From the IMG/VR virus record IMGVR_UViG_2648501787_000002: a DNA stretch of 9,468 bases, one strand, 5' to 3'. Below the pieces are notes generated by a model. The model did no database searches. It saw only the letters and a program-made list of their open reading frames with translations, and was not told the origin of the DNA. Numbering within the stretch: position 1 is the first letter of the stretch; each line of letters begins with the position of its first letter. A program made the position numbers and the translations under genes. Of this stretch, positions 2,547 to 9,468 are shown piece after piece. This DNA is from a virus. Taxonomy: Duplodnaviria; Heunggongvirae; Uroviricota; Caudoviricetes.

Positions 2547-2609
2547 AACCATCTGCGGTGATAAATTATCTCTGGCGGTGTTGACATAAATACCACTGGC
2601 GGTGATACT
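2547..2609 (+). promoter_or_regulatory. Left operator/promoter: oL3 (2547..2563), oL2 (2567..2583), oL1 (2591..2607); pL -35 TTGACA (2581..2586), -10 GATACT (2604..2609)
   Basis: Sequence ...ACATACAGATAACCATCTGCGGTGATAAATTATCTCTGGCGGTGTTGACATAAATACCACTGGCGGTGATACT matches lambda oL/pL as I recall it. Lambda similarity ends a few bases downstream of the -10. Confidence 0.9.
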
Positions 2610-2677
2610 AAACACATCAGCAGGACGCACTACTCACCAGGGCGGTGAATATACAACGATTCGAATATGAATCTACG

Positions 2678-2692
2678 GCGCTGACAAAGCGC
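2678..2692 (+). promoter_or_regulatory. nutL boxB-like RNA hairpin
   Basis: GCGCUGACAAAGCGC: 5-bp stem with GACAA loop, about 65 nt downstream of the expected pL start. Matches the P22-type boxB as I recall it and pairs with the site at 486..500. Confidence 0.65.
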
Positions 2693-2857
2693 AATAACCA
2701 AAGTGAACTTTGGGGTGTGGTGAAGGGTTCATGGACGGGAATATGTCGCACGTAAAGCGGCGAGGCCTGCGGGACTATTGCCGAATTGAAGTAGGCCGAA
2801 ACAGGTCGAAATGGGTCTCCCACCTACCACACCACCAAAGTTCATCAGGAGGTCTAT

Positions 2858-3241
2858 ATGACACGCAGAACTCAGTTCAAAGGCAATTCACGTTCTCGTC
2901 GTCGTGAGCGTTTAAAGGCAAAGGCATTAGCTAACGGCGTACTGGCCCGCGAAGAAGCAATAAGTTCAGAAGTATTACACCGCCCTACTCTAAGCAGAGC
3001 GCAGATTCAGGCTAAAGGTACTCACGAAACGCCTGAGCGCATAGAAGACGCTAAGCCAATTAAGTTCATGGCACAGGACGTGATCTGGCAACAGAAAGAA
3101 TACAGACGCAATCTGGAGCGAGCGGCCATTGTGTACGCGAATGAGTTTGGACATAAGCAACCAGAAACTGGTGTATGTCTTCCAAACGTAGCTCTTTACG
3201 CGGCAGGCTACAGGAAATCAAAACAACTGACAGCGAGATGA
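2858..3241 (+). CDS. N: N-type transcription antitermination protein, P22 gp24-like rather than lambda N
   Basis: 127-aa ORF, first gene after pL/nutL. AGGAGG lies 5 nt upstream. N-terminal arginine-rich motif (GNSRSRRRERLKAKAL). C-terminus VALYAAGYRKSKQLTAR resembles the P22 gene 24 C-terminus (VALYAAGHRKSKQITAR) as I recall it. Confidence 0.75.
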   Translation: MTRRTQFKGNSRSRRRERLKAKALANGVLAREEAISSEVLHRPTLSRAQIQAKGTHETPERIEDAKPIKFMAQDVIWQQKEYRRNLERAAIVYANEFGHKQPETGVCLPNVALYAAGYRKSKQLTAR

Positions 3242-3284
3242 CGATACCCCGCCAACTAGGGCACTAACCGACAGGAGCATGACC

Positions 3285-3422
3285 ATGAATAACGATAACG
3301 AAGCACTTAAAGAAATGATTGCGAAACTTCTTGAAGATGCCCGCCGCCTTCAGGTAGTGGAGCCAAACGCAGGGACACAATCACGCATTGATGAAGCGAT
3401 GAAATTGCTCAAAGCAGAATAA
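3285..3422 (+). CDS. Hypothetical small protein (45 aa, predicted helical)
   Basis: ATG 7 nt after AGGAG; translates to MNNDNEALKEMIAKLLEDARRLQVVEPNAGTQSRIDEAMKLLKAE. Below the ORF-track length cut-off. Sits where lambda has ral but does not resemble Ral. Confidence 0.3.
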   Translation: MNNDNEALKEMIAKLLEDARRLQVVEPNAGTQSRIDEAMKLLKAE

Positions 3423-3456
3423 GCTCAGGCAGCAAACCACTTATTTGAGGTGAGAT

Positions 3457-3708
3457 ATGGAATTTCATGAAAGTGCGATTTATGATTTTCGCGCTAACGC
3501 AAATTCAGTAAAACCACTGCCAATTGCAGTTCTTTTTAAAACAATGGGGGCGTGGGCTGTTTTATGCTTCGCCTCTGATGACACTGACGCAAGAATGGCA
3601 ATAAGCCAAGAGATGGAGATGGACCCGACAAACGATGAATTCATAATTTATGGCGCTCCATCTAATTACTTACTTGATACCTGCAACATTTACAACAAGG
3701 CTGCCTGA
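3457..3708 (+). CDS. Hypothetical protein (83 aa)
   Basis: ORF with GAGGTGA ribosome-binding site upstream, same strand as the pL operon. No recognisable family. Confidence 0.5.
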   Translation: MEFHESAIYDFRANANSVKPLPIAVLFKTMGAWAVLCFASDDTDARMAISQEMEMDPTNDEFIIYGAPSNYLLDTCNIYNKAA

Positions 3709-3766: not shown

Positions 3767-4216
3767 ATGGAAGAACAAGCAAACAAGATTCTCGTAGAAC
3801 TACTGCAAAAAGCCAGTAATGGAATAGACGCGGCTGTTTCATTTAGCCAGGCACAGATTCCTGATGTTGTTCATCAGTTGCTGCTATGGAATATGGTTGA
3901 CAGTCTGATTAAAACATTAATAGCCATTCTAACAATCCCACTGGTTTTCTGGTTTATGAAGAAGCAGTGCCAAAGAGTTGAGACAGGTAAAATCGGTGAT
4001 GAAGGATACTCATGTGAGAGGGGAAATCCCAAATACAGGCCGACAATGGTTTGGGATAGCAAAGGAGATATTAACCTTCTTATCGTGCCATTGGTTGGAG
4101 TTTTGACTCTGTGGGGGATTTTTATTATTGGTGTAGTAACCAATATGACTTGGTTAAAAATTTGGCTGGCCCCAAAACTTTACCTTATCGAATATGCAGC
4201 ATCATTGGTTAAGTAA
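3767..4216 (+). CDS. Membrane protein with two predicted transmembrane helices; possible superinfection-exclusion (SieB-like) protein by position
   Basis: 149-aa ORF with AGGTGA ribosome-binding site. Hydrophobic segments LIKTLIAILTIPLVFWFM and LLIVPLVGVLTLWGIFIIGVV. Lambdoid phages carry sieB/ral-type genes just downstream of N. Functional call is positional only. Confidence 0.5.
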   Translation: MEEQANKILVELLQKASNGIDAAVSFSQAQIPDVVHQLLLWNMVDSLIKTLIAILTIPLVFWFMKKQCQRVETGKIGDEGYSCERGNPKYRPTMVWDSKGDINLLIVPLVGVLTLWGIFIIGVVTNMTWLKIWLAPKLYLIEYAASLVK

Positions 4217-4821: not shown

Positions 4822-4904
4822 GCCGCCAAGCGCGGCTTTACCGCATACCAATAATGCTTCACGAGAGGCATTTTCGTTATGCAATCAAATATAAGGAGTT
4901 ACCC

Positions 4905-5039
4905 ATGATGCACTTTCAGCTCGCGGGTAGCGGCGTCATGTCCGCTTTCTACCCGCACGAATCTGAATTATCACGCCGAGTTAAACAATTAATCAGAGCA
5001 GCAAAGAAACAACTGGAGGCGTTATGCGCAATGAAATAG
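4905..5039 (+). CDS. cIII: CIII-like small protein (candidate FtsH/HflB inhibitor that stabilises CII)
   Basis: Probable start at ATG 4905 (AGGAG upstream). 44 aa, MMHFQLAGSGVMSAFYPHESELSRRVKQLIRAAKKQL... Core resembles lambda CIII as I recall it (AIAGWPVAGCPSESLLERITRKLRDGWKRLI). Correct position in the pL operon. Confidence 0.5.
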   Translation: MMHFQLAGSGVMSAFYPHESELSRRVKQLIRAAKKQLEALCAMK

Positions 5040-5176
5040 CCATCAATCACCAGATGCTTCGTGCTGCACAAAACAAAGCAGTAATAGCCAGATTTATTGG
5101 TGATTCCAAAATGTGGCTTGAAGCAAATAAAGCGATGAAATCAGCTATCAACCTTCCGTGGTATCGCAGGAAATGA
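5024..5176 (+). CDS. Hypothetical small protein (50 aa), possibly Kil-like
   Basis: ATG 5024 with GGAGG upstream; overlaps the end of the cIII-like ORF. Translates to MRNEIAINHQMLRAAQNKAVIARFIGDSKMWLEANKAMKSAINLPWYRRK. Position (immediately after cIII) matches lambda kil. Similarity to Kil is from uncertain memory. Confidence 0.35.
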   Translation: MRNEIAINHQMLRAAQNKAVIARFIGDSKMWLEANKAMKSAINLPWYRRK

Positions 5177-5331
5177 GTTTTACAGATAACTGGTCAGACG
5201 AAGAATTCATTCGTCAGATGAAAGAATTAATCGGTAACGAAGGAGATATTCATGTCACTTGCAACCACAGTGAAGGAGAGCAAGTTACAGAGACGCATGT
5301 ACACGCAGAAAGCTCTCTGGTATCGCCATAA
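5173..5331 (+). CDS. Hypothetical small acidic protein (52 aa)
   Basis: ATG 5173 overlaps the stop of the preceding ORF (ATGA). Translates to MSFTDNWSDEEFIRQMKELIGNEGDIHVTCNHSEGEQVTETHVHAESSLVSP, about 11 acidic and 2 basic residues. Competes with the alternative-frame ORF 5252..5422. Confidence 0.3.
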   Translation: MSFTDNWSDEEFIRQMKELIGNEGDIHVTCNHSEGEQVTETHVHAESSLVSP

Positions 5332-5422
5332 TGGTGACCGCGAAGGAATGCGGGTATGCCTTAACTTGTCCCGAGTCGAAGTATTAAATCAGCGTTATTT
5401 CCTTGTGCCGTGTCCATTCTGA
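5252..5422 (+). CDS. Hypothetical small basic protein (56 aa), alternative frame to 5173..5331
   Basis: ATG 5252 lies 6 nt after AAGGAG. Translates to MSLATTVKESKLQRRMYTQKALWYRHNGDREGMRVCLNLSRVEVLNQRYFLVPCPF. Ends 8 nt before the annealase gene. I cannot tell which of the two overlapping frames is real, or whether both are. Confidence 0.3.
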   Translation: MSLATTVKESKLQRRMYTQKALWYRHNGDREGMRVCLNLSRVEVLNQRYFLVPCPF

Positions 5423-5430
5423 GGTGAATT

Positions 5431-6129
5431 ATGGATTTGAATAAATTCGATGAGCCATTCAGCCCCGAAGATATCGAATGGCGAATACAGCAAAGCGGTA
5501 AAACACGCGATGGCAAGGTGTGGGCTATGGTGCTGGCTTATGTCACGAACCGGGCAATCATGAAACGCCTGGACGATGTTTGCGGCAAAGCAGGATGGCG
5601 CAATGAATACCGCGATATTCCCAACAACGGCGGAGTTGAATGCGGCATATCAATCAAGATTGATTCCGAATGGGTAACCAAATGGGATGCTGCTGAAAAC
5701 ACGCAGGTAGAAGCCGTCAAAGGTGGTCGTTCCGGTGCAATGAAGCGTGCTGCCGTTCAATGGGGAATCGGTCGGTATCTGTATAACCTTGAGGAAGGTT
5801 TCGCACAAACATCTCTCGATAAAAAGCAGGGATGGCACAGGGCAAAACTGAAAGATGGAACAGGATTTTACTGGTCCCCTCCATCGCTGCCGGGATGGGC
5901 AATCCCAGCATCAGATAACAAACCATCACCAGAAAATACCAACCAGAAATCTCCATCGGTTGACTGCGAACAAATCCTGAAAGACTTCAGCGATTATGCG
6001 TCAACAGAAACTGACAAGAAAAAACTCATCGAGCGTTATCAGCGTGACTGGCAATTAATGGCTGGCAACGAGGAAGCGCAGGCTAAATGCGTTCAGGTAA
6101 TGAACATCAGAGTTAACGAACTAAAATAG
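5431..6129 (+). CDS. Single-strand annealing protein (Rad52/Erf-type recombinase) with a C-terminal extension
   Basis: 232-aa ORF with GAGGTGA ribosome-binding site. Contains AMKRAAVQWGIGRYLY, reminiscent of the Rad52 annealing-domain motif (KRALRSFGNALG in human Rad52). Immediately upstream of an SSB gene. C-terminal KKKLIERYQRDWQL region recalls P22 Erf from memory. Confidence 0.65.
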   Translation: MDLNKFDEPFSPEDIEWRIQQSGKTRDGKVWAMVLAYVTNRAIMKRLDDVCGKAGWRNEYRDIPNNGGVECGISIKIDSEWVTKWDAAENTQVEAVKGGRSGAMKRAAVQWGIGRYLYNLEEGFAQTSLDKKQGWHRAKLKDGTGFYWSPPSLPGWAIPASDNKPSPENTNQKSPSVDCEQILKDFSDYASTETDKKKLIERYQRDWQLMAGNEEAQAKCVQVMNIRVNELK

Positions 6130-6138
6130 GCGGCATAA

Positions 6139-6600
6139 ATGGCAAGCAGAGGCGTAAATAAGGTGATTATCCTTGGTCGGGTAGGACAAGACCCGGAAGT
6201 TCGATACTCACCATCAGGTACAGCGTTCGCTAACCTGACAATAGCCACGTCAGAACAATGGCGAGATAAAAATACTGGCGAGCAAAAGGAATTGACTGAA
6301 TGGCATCGTGTTGCTGTATCCGGGAAACTGGCTGAGGTCGTGGGGCAGTATGTGAAAAAAGGTGATCAGATTTATTTCGAGGGAATGCTGAGAACCAGAA
6401 AGTGGAAAGACCAGTCAGGGCAAGACCGTTACACAACCGAGGTTCATGTCGGAATTAATGGCGTGATGCAAATGCTTGGCGGCATTGGCGACAGCAAACA
6501 ACAAGCAGCCAGCAGGCAATCACAGAAGCCACAGCAGCAATCATCACCAGCACAACACAACGAACCTCCTATGAACTTCGACGATGAGATCCCATTTTAA
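6139..6600 (+). CDS. ssb: Single-stranded DNA-binding protein (SSB)
   Basis: 153-aa ORF. N-terminus [23 protein letters not shown] and [11 protein letters not shown] match E. coli SSB closely. Gln/Pro-rich linker and acidic tail NFDDEIPF (E. coli: DFDDDIPF). Confidence 0.92.
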
Positions 6601-6615
6601 TCATTGGGAGAAAAT

Positions 6616-7083
6616 ATGATCACTTGCAAAAAATGTGGAGAGAATAAACCACCTAATGGTTTTTATCCTAGAAATAAGGTGTGCAAGGAATGCACTAAAA
6701 AACGAGTAACTGAATATCAAAAAGGAATAGGAAAGCTAATACATAATAATGCTTGCAAAAAATATAACAAAAGCGAAAAGGGCAAGGTTGCATTAAGCAA
6801 AGCAAGAGAGAACTATCTGGAATCTCATCGCCAAAGACAGCAAGCAAGATGGTCAGTCAAACGGGCAATTAAATCTGGTAAGTTATGTAGACCAACAACG
6901 TGTCAGAAATGCAACAGCAAATGCCACCCAGACGCTCACCACTGCGATTACAGTAAACCTCTTGAAGTGATGTGGCTATGCAAAGCATGTCATGTTGAAT
7001 GGCACAAGCACAACAAGCCAATATATCCAGACGAGGAACCAGTAACTCTCCCCTTCCCTCGTCACGCTATTAACGCAATTTAA
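6616..7083 (+). CDS. Cys-rich zinc-binding protein with an HNH-endonuclease-like motif
   Basis: Probable start at ATG 6616 (GGGAG upstream; the track's 6604 start is a TTG). N-terminal CxxC...CxxC zinc ribbon; C-terminal CQKCNSKCHPDAHHCDYSKPLEVMWLCKACHVEWH fits an HNH pattern (H-x-D-H-H ... C-x2-C-H-x3-H). Confidence 0.5.
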   Translation: MITCKKCGENKPPNGFYPRNKVCKECTKKRVTEYQKGIGKLIHNNACKKYNKSEKGKVALSKARENYLESHRQRQQARWSVKRAIKSGKLCRPTTCQKCNSKCHPDAHHCDYSKPLEVMWLCKACHVEWHKHNKPIYPDEEPVTLPFPRHAINAI

Positions 7084-7096
7084 TCAGGAGAAAAAC

Positions 7097-7393
7097 ATGC
7101 CAGCGCCTTTGTATGGTGCGGATGACGCGCGCCGCTGTTCCGGCAATTCCGTATCGGAGGTGCTGGATAAATTCAGAAAAAACTACGATCGAATAATGTC
7201 TCTACCGCAGGAAACGAAAGAGGAAAAGGAATTTCGCCACTGTATATGGCTTGCAGAGAAAGAAGAACGCGAGCGAATTTACCAGACATCAATCCGACCA
7301 TTCCGCAAAGCCACATATACCCACTTCCCTGAATATATCGACCCGCGCCTGCGTAATTACCGCTCACGCTATGGCGCTATCAGTAATGACTGA
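7097..7393 (+). CDS. Hypothetical protein (98 aa)
   Basis: ORF with AGGAG ribosome-binding site, same strand as the operon. No recognisable family. Confidence 0.5.
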
Positions 7394-7403
7394 GGAATTT
7401 ACC

Positions 7404-7571
7404 ATGAGAGGACTTGCATACAATCCCGGCATTCTTCCGGCAGAAATGATTATTCGCCAGCGCGTAAAGCCAATGCCATCGAGAGAGGAATTGCTTAAGA
7501 GAAATTCTTTTCCGTCAGTGAATCAAAACAAATATCTGAATGCGATGTGGCGCAAAGGAGGCAACCAGTGA
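7404..7571 (+). CDS. Hypothetical small protein (55 aa)
   Basis: ATG 7404 with GAGGA upstream; in frame with the tail of track ORF 7251..7571. Its stop overlaps the next start (GTGA). Confidence 0.4.
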
Positions 7572-8374
7572 GCAAGATTGACTATCAGGTACTGCGTGCC
7601 AAGGCAGAAAAAGCAACGTGTGGTGTATGGTCGCTCGAATATGGAGAGGGCCGATTTGATGGTGATGATGCACTAATTCATCGCGAGGCTGCTGGATATA
7701 TTCCCATTTGCAGAATTGAAGGAGCGCATCCAGAAAGCGGTTTCGATGAAGATTTCCAAATGGAACAGCAGGCCAATGCTGAATTCATCGCCGCAGCCAA
7801 TCCGGCTACCGTCTTGGCGCTGCTTGGCGAGCTGGAAGCAGCAGAGAACAACCTTATTGATAGTGAATGCCATGTTGCTGAACTGGAAGAAGCGCTACGC
7901 GATAAGCAGGCGTTACTTGAAGCATCAGAAAAGCGCATAGCAGAACTGGAAGCCGAACTCGTAAGCCAAACTTACAAGTTGCCAGAATTAATCGAGGGCA
8001 TGGAAGTTTCCATTGATGTAAGCACTTGTGATGCTGATTTAGGTAATCGCTATTTCGGCACCGTCACCGAGGCGTTAGAACTTGATACTGCCAAGAATGG
8101 TTACATCCTCCTGGTTCAGGACGCAGAGCCAAACTTCGATGTAAATGGCAACTCTCCGGTAACTCCGGATGGTTGGATAAGCTGTAGTGATCGAATGCCG
8201 GATGATGGTCAGCACGTAATTATTTTATGTGATGGCGCATTCGTTCTTTATGCGCAATATCGAGACAGTGAGTTTTTTGATGTTGTCCGCAATGGTGAGG
8301 AGTTCTTCGAAACGCAGAGCCGCAATGTAACCCACTGGATGCCGCTACCGGAACCGCCGCAGGAGGTAAAGTGA
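7568..8374 (+). CDS. Ea22-like prophage protein (coiled-coil middle region, DUF551-like C-terminal domain)
   Basis: Probable GTG start at 7568, 6 nt after AAAGGAGG (track shows a longer 7547 start). N-terminus [21 protein letters not shown], central coiled coil ([47 protein letters not shown]), C-terminal [14 protein letters not shown]...HWMPLPEPP. Assignment is from memory of prophage Ead/Ea22-like proteins. Confidence 0.55.
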
Positions 8375-8658
8375 TGGACTCCTTCGCGAAATATACGATT
8401 ATTGACTGGATAGCATTCCTTCAGGTTTTGCTCATCTGGTTTTATATGGCTTACAGGAGTGGACAGTGGATTGTCAGTGTAGCCTGTAGCAGGGGATGGC
8501 GTTGGTGGAACCGAAAGAATAAAAAAGCACTGGCCTTGGATTCGTTTTACGAAGCATTCAATCTTAACAGCCTTCAGCCTGGTTCTGTCATTGTAGTCAC
8601 CACTCAAAGCGGCATGACGATACAAATTCACAAGCCAAAGGAGGAAGGTCGTGGCTAA
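8374..8658 (+). CDS. Hypothetical small protein with one predicted N-terminal transmembrane helix
   Basis: ATG 8374 lies 7 nt after AGGAGG and overlaps the upstream stop (TGATG). Hydrophobic IIDWIAFLQVLLIWFYMAY segment. Confidence 0.45.
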   Translation: MDSFAKYTIIDWIAFLQVLLIWFYMAYRSGQWIVSVACSRGWRWWNRKNKKALALDSFYEAFNLNSLQPGSVIVVTTQSGMTIQIHKPKEEGRG

Positions 8659-8932
8659 CCTGCAACTTGCCGTCAAAGGTGAATACTTCAACGCCATGAT
8701 TCGCGGGGAGAAAACGGAAGAGTATCGCCTGTGCAATGACTACTGGAATAAACGCCTCGTTAATCGTAAGTATGACCGCCTGATTATCACAAAGGGATAT
8801 CCGAAGCGCGACGATTCCAGCCGCAGAATTGACGTCCCGTATGACGGATATGAAATCAAGACAATCACACATCCGCACTTCGGCGATAAACCGGTAACGG
8901 TATTCGCGATAAAGGTGAATATCAATTGCTAA
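8651..8932 (+). CDS. Small PUA/ASCH-like (DUF3850-type) protein
   Basis: GTG start 6 nt after AGGAGG. N-terminal KGEYFNAMIRGEKTEEYR resembles the ASCH/DUF3850 signature (Y-F-x-x-I-x-x-G-x-K-T-x-E-x-R) as I recall it. Confidence 0.45.
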   Translation: MANLQLAVKGEYFNAMIRGEKTEEYRLCNDYWNKRLVNRKYDRLIITKGYPKRDDSSRRIDVPYDGYEIKTITHPHFGDKPVTVFAIKVNINC

Positions 8933-8956
8933 ATTAGTAGCATAGCATAAAGATGC

Positions 8957-8980
8957 TTGCATTAATGAAGTGTGTATAAT
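8957..8980 (+). promoter_or_regulatory. Candidate sigma70 promoter (consensus -10 TATAAT at 8975..8980; TTGCAT at 8957..8962)
   Basis: Perfect TATAAT preceded by TGTG, in an AT-rich intergenic region upstream of ORF 9046..9237. The TTGCAT element is only 12 bp upstream, so it is unlikely to be the true -35. Confidence 0.3.
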
Positions 8981-9045
8981 AACGCCTCATCAATAGTAAA
9001 CTACTGAAATAGCAAAAAAAATGCATATTAAAGAGGATTCAAAAA

Positions 9046-9237
9046 TTGAAAATGTTCATGCAAATAGACAGACGCATAGATATTAATGGCAATTCATACT
9101 TAGTTAGATGCGAAGAGAGGCCTAACGGTGAGTGGCGTGTATATGATATTGACCGTAAGATCAATATCAGCACCATGAACAAAGACACTGCCTTTGATGA
9201 ATGGAAAGCTGAAGCTAAAAAACAACATAATTCGTAA
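9046..9237 (+). CDS. Hypothetical small protein (63 aa), stand-alone moron-like gene
   Basis: TTG 9046 or ATG 9052 start downstream of AAGAGGA. Bracketed by a candidate promoter and a rho-independent terminator. No recognisable family. Confidence 0.4.
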   Translation: MKMFMQIDRRIDINGNSYLVRCEERPNGEWRVYDIDRKINISTMNKDTAFDEWKAEAKKQHNS

Positions 9238-9280
9238 AATTACAAAAACCCTAACCAATTGATGGATTTCTTTTATCTGA

Positions 9281-9305
9281 ACTCGCTACGGCGAGTTTTG
9301 TTTTA
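9281..9305 (+). terminator. Rho-independent terminator
   Basis: Stem actcgc / gcgagt (6 bp), loop tacg, then ttttgtttt. Confidence 0.65.
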
Positions 9306-9368
9306 TGGAGATGATAAATGAACTTCCGAGTTACAGGTGAATGGAATGGAGAGCCATTCAACAGGGTT

Positions 9369-9468
<100 letters not shown>

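Follow-up and report, generated by a model that had tools for sequence, protein, structure and literature searches.

This locus raises the question of whether a small open reading frame (ORF) at the right end of a lambdoid prophage fragment is a transcription unit of its own, with a private promoter and terminator, or an accessory gene of the operon that precedes it. The window, which is the whole stretch of DNA that was analysed, comprises 9,468 nucleotides. A preliminary description of the region 8933–9305 had read it as an independently transcribed gene at an element boundary, of the type seen for lysogenic-conversion morons or for toxin and regulator genes.

The prophage fragment and its IS100 ends

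The leftward (pL) operon of a lambdoid prophage reads along the plus strand of the window. The genes cII (101–400) and cro (539–739) are situated on the minus strand, a lambda-like cI gene occupies positions 840–1553, and the pL/OL region at 2564–2609 is identical to that of lambda. After pL/OL come N, cIII, kil, a Rad52-type recombinase gene, ssb, the anti-RecBCD gene abc2, an Ead/DUF551 gene and a DUF4752 gene. The final gene of the pL operon ahead of the region of interest (8651–8932, plus strand) carries the RefSeq name 'ASCH domain-containing protein' and belongs to phrog_625; a Pfam search with its protein gave no match. In the immunity region (1561–2356), rexA and rexB are replaced by two overlapping ORFs without known function, one of 145 amino acids (phrog_5893) and one of 123 amino acids (phrog_6136) with a coiled coil and weak XhlA-like similarity. 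PADLOC gave no match for this pair, which could be an alternative exclusion or defence cassette that is co-expressed with cI.

The two ends of the window, 1–98 and 9371–9468, form a perfect 98-nt inverted repeat, and both match the istB-proximal end of the insertion sequence IS100 (IS21 family). The terminal 98 nt of the element lie on the minus strand at 9371–9468, with the mirror copy at 1–98. The right inverted repeat, which had been taken for an element boundary, is thus the end of an IS100 copy and not a boundary of the phage or of an element. The two inverted IS100 ends bracket a 9.27-kb prophage fragment that extends from cII to a truncated orf55. The right copy interrupts a homologue of lambda orf55 (lambdap35) past codon 17, so that only its first 17 codons are left (9319–9370, plus strand), and the left copy directly adjoins the stop codon of cII. 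The 5-mers adjacent to the two ends, CCTCA and GTTAT, differ, and the ends therefore share no target duplication. The whole IS100-bracketed arrangement was found in no record of three collections, in which the window is covered to 64% at best. Through the IS100 insertion the window has lost the orf55/xis/int part that would lie downstream of the small gene.

The 63-codon gene and its relatives

The small ORF has 63 codons, starts with TTG at position 9046 and extends to 9237 on the plus strand. It encodes MKMFMQIDRRIDINGNSYLVRCEERPNGEWRVYDIDRKINISTMNKDTAFDEWKAEAKKQHNS. A Shine-Dalgarno sequence, AGAGGA (9032–9037), is present 8 nt before the start codon, and the homologues have GAGGAG or AAGGA preceding TTG or GTG starts. 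The ribosome-binding site is strong and the TTG start weak. That translation starts with the TTG at 9046 is supported by the N termini of the homologues (M-x-x-FMQIDR) and by the distance to the Shine-Dalgarno sequence. The protein aligns with phrog_16329, a PHROG without functional annotation, over its full length (residues 1–63 to profile positions 1–63 of 63, E = 8.5e-49). In E. coli, Shigella and Salmonella, hundreds of contigs encode an identical protein, whose database names are 'hypothetical' or plainly automatic labels throughout. RefSeq/PGAP leaves the ORF uncalled in all of the full-length E. coli copies listed (27 of 27).

An exhaustive HMMER search over 1.84 billion representatives, combined with a profile search, revealed just four more diverged lineages, with proteins of 60–62 amino acids that are 66, 51, 49 and 36% identical to the protein of the window. 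Long repeat proteins that also appeared in the HMMER search (P0010–P0012) were discarded as low-complexity repeat matches, and a scan of genome contigs for further relatives confirmed nothing. Across the five lineages the length is kept and 17 alignment columns are invariant. Synonymous sites are saturated between lineages (pS 0.74–1.0), whereas nonsynonymous differences are few (pN 0.11–0.39). The indels among 33 near-identical copies are all outside the ORF. Judged by this pattern of substitution, the 63-codon ORF is a genuine gene under purifying selection.

The gene proposed in the preliminary description is thus borne out by the PHROG match, by the saturated pS and low pN, and by a confident AlphaFold model, and its conservation in related elements by the homology search, with five diverged lineages at 36–66% identity. 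The contrary reading would make the frame a chance product of AT-rich filler, or the region a non-coding RNA. The missing RefSeq/PGAP annotation in the E. coli genomes listed and the TTG start codon would fit such a reading, but the pS/pN pattern already makes it very unlikely. Length and amino acid pattern have been kept while synonymous sites became saturated, none of the 33 copies has a frame-breaking indel, and the predicted structure is confident. Moreover, an Rfam scan of the whole window gave no match at E ≤ 1, and the RNA structure of the leader is not significant (fold z = 0.0 and −1.4). We give this reading hardly any credence.

A stretch of 17 nt within codons 4–9, TTCATGCAAATAGACAG, is identical in four lineages despite the otherwise saturated synonymous sites. 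It is located at 9055–9071 in the window, at 6010–6026 in both L007 and L008, and at 4070–4086 in L043, and it includes the rare codons ATA and AGA/AGG. The start codon is weak (TTG or GTG) in four of the five lineages. The 17 nt may have been kept by a constraint at the nucleotide level that acts on translation initiation, or their identity may be due to chance.

The genomic position of the gene differs between lineages, with one recurrent feature: in five of five no further gene separates it from an intrinsic terminator, which follows within 15–45 nt and has a different sequence in each lineage. The lineage with 66% identity (L042) has the order recombination genes, a 105-nt gap, the gene with a TTG start, terminator, xis (DUF1233) and int. 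In the lineage with 36% identity (L008), the gene is part of the early-left operon of a prophage; it begins with GTG after a gap of 123 nt, and 16 nt separate its stop codon from a terminator. In the two lineages with 49 and 51% identity (L007 and L043, respectively), the first codon of the gene and the stop codon of a DNA polymerase III theta-like gene overlap, and here, too, a terminator comes next. A private promoter is certainly absent in these two lineages. The remaining three have AT-rich gaps with some −10-like hexamer, and these gaps do not align with one another. An intact relative of the window type (L001) shows the order insert, orf55, a gene for an HTH protein and the integrase gene, which supports the earlier remark that in lambda this position would hold xis/int: the gene lies just upstream of the xis/int site of intact relatives. 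An integration/excision module is found downstream in three lineages, directly in L042 and at a distance in the window type and L008.

The mobile insert, its leader and the terminator

The gene is carried by a low-GC insert of ~330–340 bp (8924–9263, plus strand), which replaces about 30 bp of the backbone of phages HK022, CUS-3 and 933W. The GC content of the insert is 33%, compared with 44.6% for the rest of the window. In the alignment, the three phages have the ASCH-type gene, about 30 bp, and then the sequence GGATTTCTTTTATCTGAACTCGCTACGGCG(A/G)GTTTTGTTTTATGG, which is identical in the window; the insert is located between the gene that RefSeq calls ASCH-domain and the backbone terminator. 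The 3′ end of the upstream gene (about 8924–8932, with the stop codon at 8930–8932) is likewise part of the insert, so that the C terminus of that gene product reads ...KVNIDNE* in HK022 and ...KVNINC* in the window. The insert is therefore a presence/absence polymorphism between collinear phages. It was found in 30 of 5,426 complete E. coli genomes, with the uninterrupted (empty) junction in 747, and in one of 50,697 phage records, the Stx2a phage Stx2_16002. In the same phage collection, 250 records match the query 8800–9468, which consists of the flanks and the IS100 end. Compared with the conserved exo-xis block, the family is much less common.

Among the 33 near-identical copies, the insert is much more uniform than its mosaic flanks, and the leader always accompanies the ORF. 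The comparison suggests that the region is a horizontally exchanged accessory-gene module, made up of the AT-rich leader and the 63-codon gene. At the insert borders, copies of the Stx2_16002 type (L011) have the 8-bp sequence ATTGATGG on both sides, and the window has CAATTG at both borders (8922–8928 and 9255–9261). These border repeats may be microhomology that was used in illegitimate recombination. Because about 30 bp of backbone have been replaced, the borders are not a simple target duplication.

A 95%-identical module is present in Gifsy-like prophages of Salmonella, where it is part of the rightward (pR) operon. The gene order is O, a P-like gene, DUF977, an ASCH-like gene, the ORF, dinI, DUF1367 and ninG. 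The part of the insert that is common to the Salmonella copies corresponds to about 8924–9251 of the window. In one such prophage (L040), the module region at 2600–3700 is situated between the ASCH-like gene and the dinI homologue, and the latter has a LexA-box-like sequence, CTGT-N8-ACAG, upstream. The Salmonella protein is STM14_1438 of S. Typhimurium 14028S and occurs on at least 1,000 contigs; a literature search found no paper naming STM14_1438. A near-identical module is thus present in two different operons with mosaic flanks.

The leader of the module is the AT-rich gap of 113 nt (8933–9045, plus strand; 28% GC) that had been described after the pL-operon genes, and it is present as described. 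The promoter that had been assigned to it is at most a candidate. An exact TATAAT, a candidate −10 element, is found at 8975–8980 on the plus strand, 71 nt upstream of the TTG start, but a −35 or an extended −10 element is missing. Hexamers at a spacing of 15–19 nt match TTGACA in at most two of six positions, a TTGCAT precedes the −10 by just 12 nt, and no TG dinucleotide is in register for an extended −10. A sigma-70 promoter scan of the gap 8933–9045 gave no site, and by eye there is no CII-type TTGC-N6-TTGC site near 8957. An exact TATAAT arises in 22% of dinucleotide-preserving shuffles of the gap, i.e. with a chance P of about 0.22. The hexamer has changed to AATAAT in 9 of the 33 near-identical copies (the Salmonella type).

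The repeated ATGCAT/TGCAT motifs reported for the gap are present as well, but they are not enriched relative to shuffles (P = 0.07–0.3). The 4-mer GCAT is enriched, with a P of about 0.009 that is post hoc and uncorrected. The ATGCAT at 9021–9026 is destroyed in the Salmonella copies. The AATAAT and the lost ATGCAT of the Salmonella version argue against a strong constraint on either motif. In the upstream gaps of two other lineages, −10-like hexamers are found (GATAAT in L042 and TAATAT in L008), and an alignment of the three gaps revealed no conserved promoter block. The position of the TATAAT before the start codon and the hexamers of these two lineages leave room for an independent promoter. 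A weak promoter that consists of a −10 element only, perhaps silenced by H-NS, is a tentative interpretation that we regard as doubtful.

Two further observations concern this part of the sequence. The poly-A run at 9010–9020 of the leader differs in length among otherwise near-identical copies, which fits slippage in a non-coding stretch. Within the ORF, there are two sigma-70-like matches of 9 in 12 positions, at 9143–9170 on the minus strand and at 9202–9231 on the plus strand, and both are kept in L040. Across the window 13 matches of this quality were found and 19.0 were expected from shuffles; as the total is below expectation, the two within the ORF are probably meaningless.

The terminator reported after the ORF is clearly recognizable. 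It covers 9279–9305 on the plus strand and consists of a hairpin (9279–9298) with an 8-bp stem and a dG of −11.9 kcal/mol (z = −4.1 compared with shuffles), followed by the T-run UUUUGUUUUAU. However, it does not belong to the gene. Together with the 15 nt upstream, it aligns nearly base-for-base with the sequence annotated as 'tL4 terminator' in HK022 (X51962). The terminator is present in HK022, CUS-3 and 933W, which are without the ORF, and Salmonella prophages (L040) have the same module with no such terminator behind it. Because insert-free phages have it in common with the window, it is not part of the mobile module and is a terminator of the backbone. A literature search found no paper naming HK022 together with tL4.

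On the plus strand, there are no terminator-like sites from 4872 to 9279. With no terminator between the upstream pL genes and the ORF, co-transcription is expected, and the region is not the stand-alone unit that it had been thought to be. Expression as part of an operon is also indicated by the L007 and L043 lineages, in which the gene start overlaps the preceding stop codon. [quoted passage not shown] The main transcript of the 63-codon gene would be the N-antiterminated pL transcript that is made during infection or induction, with the gene as its last delayed-early member. Transcripts that are unmodified by N, including any that begin at the TATAAT in a lysogen, would end at tL4, and transcription of the module would in that way stay out of orf55, xis and int. 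This scheme takes pL transcription, the part played by N and the activity of tL4 from homology and a database annotation. Taken together, the region is probably best explained as an ordinary accessory gene on a mobile insert in the pL operon, followed by a backbone terminator and co-transcribed with the pL genes.

The gene product and alternative readings

The gene product is predicted to be soluble and compact, a domain of about 7.5 kDa in which four antiparallel β strands precede a C-terminal helix. AlphaFold2 gave a pLDDT of 85.9 from the single sequence and of 89.6 with an alignment of seven sequences, with the same order of secondary structure elements. Inspection of the sequence revealed no signal peptide and no hydrophobic or transmembrane segment, and a hand count gave a near-neutral net charge. 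Searches of the protein and its homologues against Pfam (E ≤ 10), NCBIfam and PADLOC gave no match, and neither did a profile search against PDB sequences. Kinship with the orf55 protein, which was suspected from a common GEW...F/YD.W pattern, was dropped when BLASTP gave no alignment, and kinship with AP2/ERF domains, which was suspected by eye, received an hhalign probability of 0.1%. The fold shows weak resemblance to the TriX immunity protein and to HicB N-domains. By analogy with the small exo-xis proteins, our guess is that the protein would bind a macromolecule of the host or the phage and act as a small modulator that is not essential.

One alternative is that of a true moron, in which transcription, constitutive or regulated, is driven from the repressed prophage by the TATAAT at 8975–8980 and ends at tL4, and the protein gives the lysogen a new property, such as phage exclusion or a fitness or virulence trait. 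The indel polymorphism and deviant GC content agree with this idea, and this part of the moron interpretation in the preliminary description holds; the part that does not is the terminator, which is outside the mobile module and is not carried along with the gene. The constant association of leader and ORF, the exact −10 hexamer with its counterparts in the L042 and L008 gaps, and the terminator within 15–45 nt in every lineage can also be counted in favour of a moron, as can the different operon in Salmonella, where an internal promoter would free expression from its context. Against it are the negative promoter scan and the missing −35 and extended −10 elements, the frequency with which TATAAT arises in shuffles, the AATAAT of the widespread Salmonella copies, upstream regions that do not align between diverged homologues, and the overlap with the upstream stop codon in two lineages. 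A PADLOC match is also missing. On balance, we consider a true moron rather unlikely and prefer co-transcription with the pL genes.

The other alternatives concern the function of the protein. It might be a small β-sheet nucleic acid-binding factor of the AP2, integrase-arm or lambda Orf60a type, or of the dsRBD type, that acts near the end of the operon, for example in excision/integration or in termination or read-through at the adjoining terminator. The predicted fold, four antiparallel strands packed on one helix, fits the description published for Orf60a and AP2-type DNA-binding domains (PMC8614690), and the gene recurs directly 5′ of a terminator and, in L042, directly 5′ of xis-int. However, neither sequence nor profile comparison showed similarity to Orf60a, to the AP2 domain or to any PDB chain, the net charge by hand count is about neutral and not basic, and the Salmonella and theta-linked contexts are distant from xis/int, all of which makes such a factor improbable. 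A more specific form of the idea starts from the gene-then-terminator order in five lineages, the weak starts in four, the identical 17 nt and the small sheet-plus-helix protein, and takes the family as a dedicated operon-end factor that tunes termination or read-through into xis/int or the next module, or excision. This would add a new regulatory layer to lambdoid phages, and we regard it as distinctly improbable. A toxin, or one part of a toxin-antitoxin or abortive-infection pair, would suit a small gene in a prophage accessory region, with weak TTG/GTG starts that could limit the dose and with the weak fold resemblance to TriX and HicB, but it appears very improbable. A partner ORF next to the gene is missing, as is a convincing antisense promoter, the protein is without a hydrophobic or transmembrane segment, PADLOC, Pfam and NCBIfam have no model of a toxin-antitoxin or defence system that matches, and the neighbouring genes differ in every lineage. 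The toxin or regulator gene of the preliminary description finds no support in these results.

Significance and comparison with known systems

The feature is a small uncharacterised accessory gene in the variable exo-xis region that is already catalogued as a PHROG. On its own it is of little consequence, one more small accessory gene of lambdoid prophages. It is nevertheless a selected gene that is widespread in prophages of E. coli, Shigella and Salmonella, an Stx2a phage and Gifsy-like prophages among them, but that RefSeq has not annotated in the complete E. coli genomes examined. It is also an example of a promoter-gene-terminator unit that looks self-contained but consists of a mobile gene and a terminator that the backbone already had. 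Its unusual points are the gene-then-terminator order in five lineages, the weak starts in four of five and the identical 17-nt stretch in four lineages. The recurrent layout and the weak starts provide a testable handle for exo-xis accessory proteins.

Morons, a concept reportedly due to Hendrix and colleagues, are extra genes between conserved neighbours in lambdoid phages. The module resembles them as a presence/absence insert between features that are adjacent in HK022, CUS-3 and 933W, in its GC content below that of the surroundings, and in being near-identical within mosaic flanks at two genome positions. It is unlike a moron in that its terminator is the backbone tL4, its promoter is a lone −10 hexamer that is not conserved, and it has no insulation from upstream pL transcription.

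[quoted passage not shown] The map of the window and that of L001, compared with lambda, place the gene in the pL operon after the recombination genes (exo/bet or erf type) and before xis/int, and it shares with the exo-xis genes the size class of about 60 amino acids, a non-essential, variable character and presumed transcription from pL. The sheet-plus-helix fold predicted for its product resembles the published model of Orf60a (PMC8614690). In contrast, the product has no similarity to Orf60a that BLASTP could detect, in a homology test that covered direct comparison with Orf60a and orf55 only. Since the product has no Pfam match, it also matches no Pfam family of any lambda exo-xis protein.

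HK022 offers a third comparison. There, tL4 is found directly after the homologue of the ASCH-type gene, whereas in the window a 340-bp module is wedged between the two.
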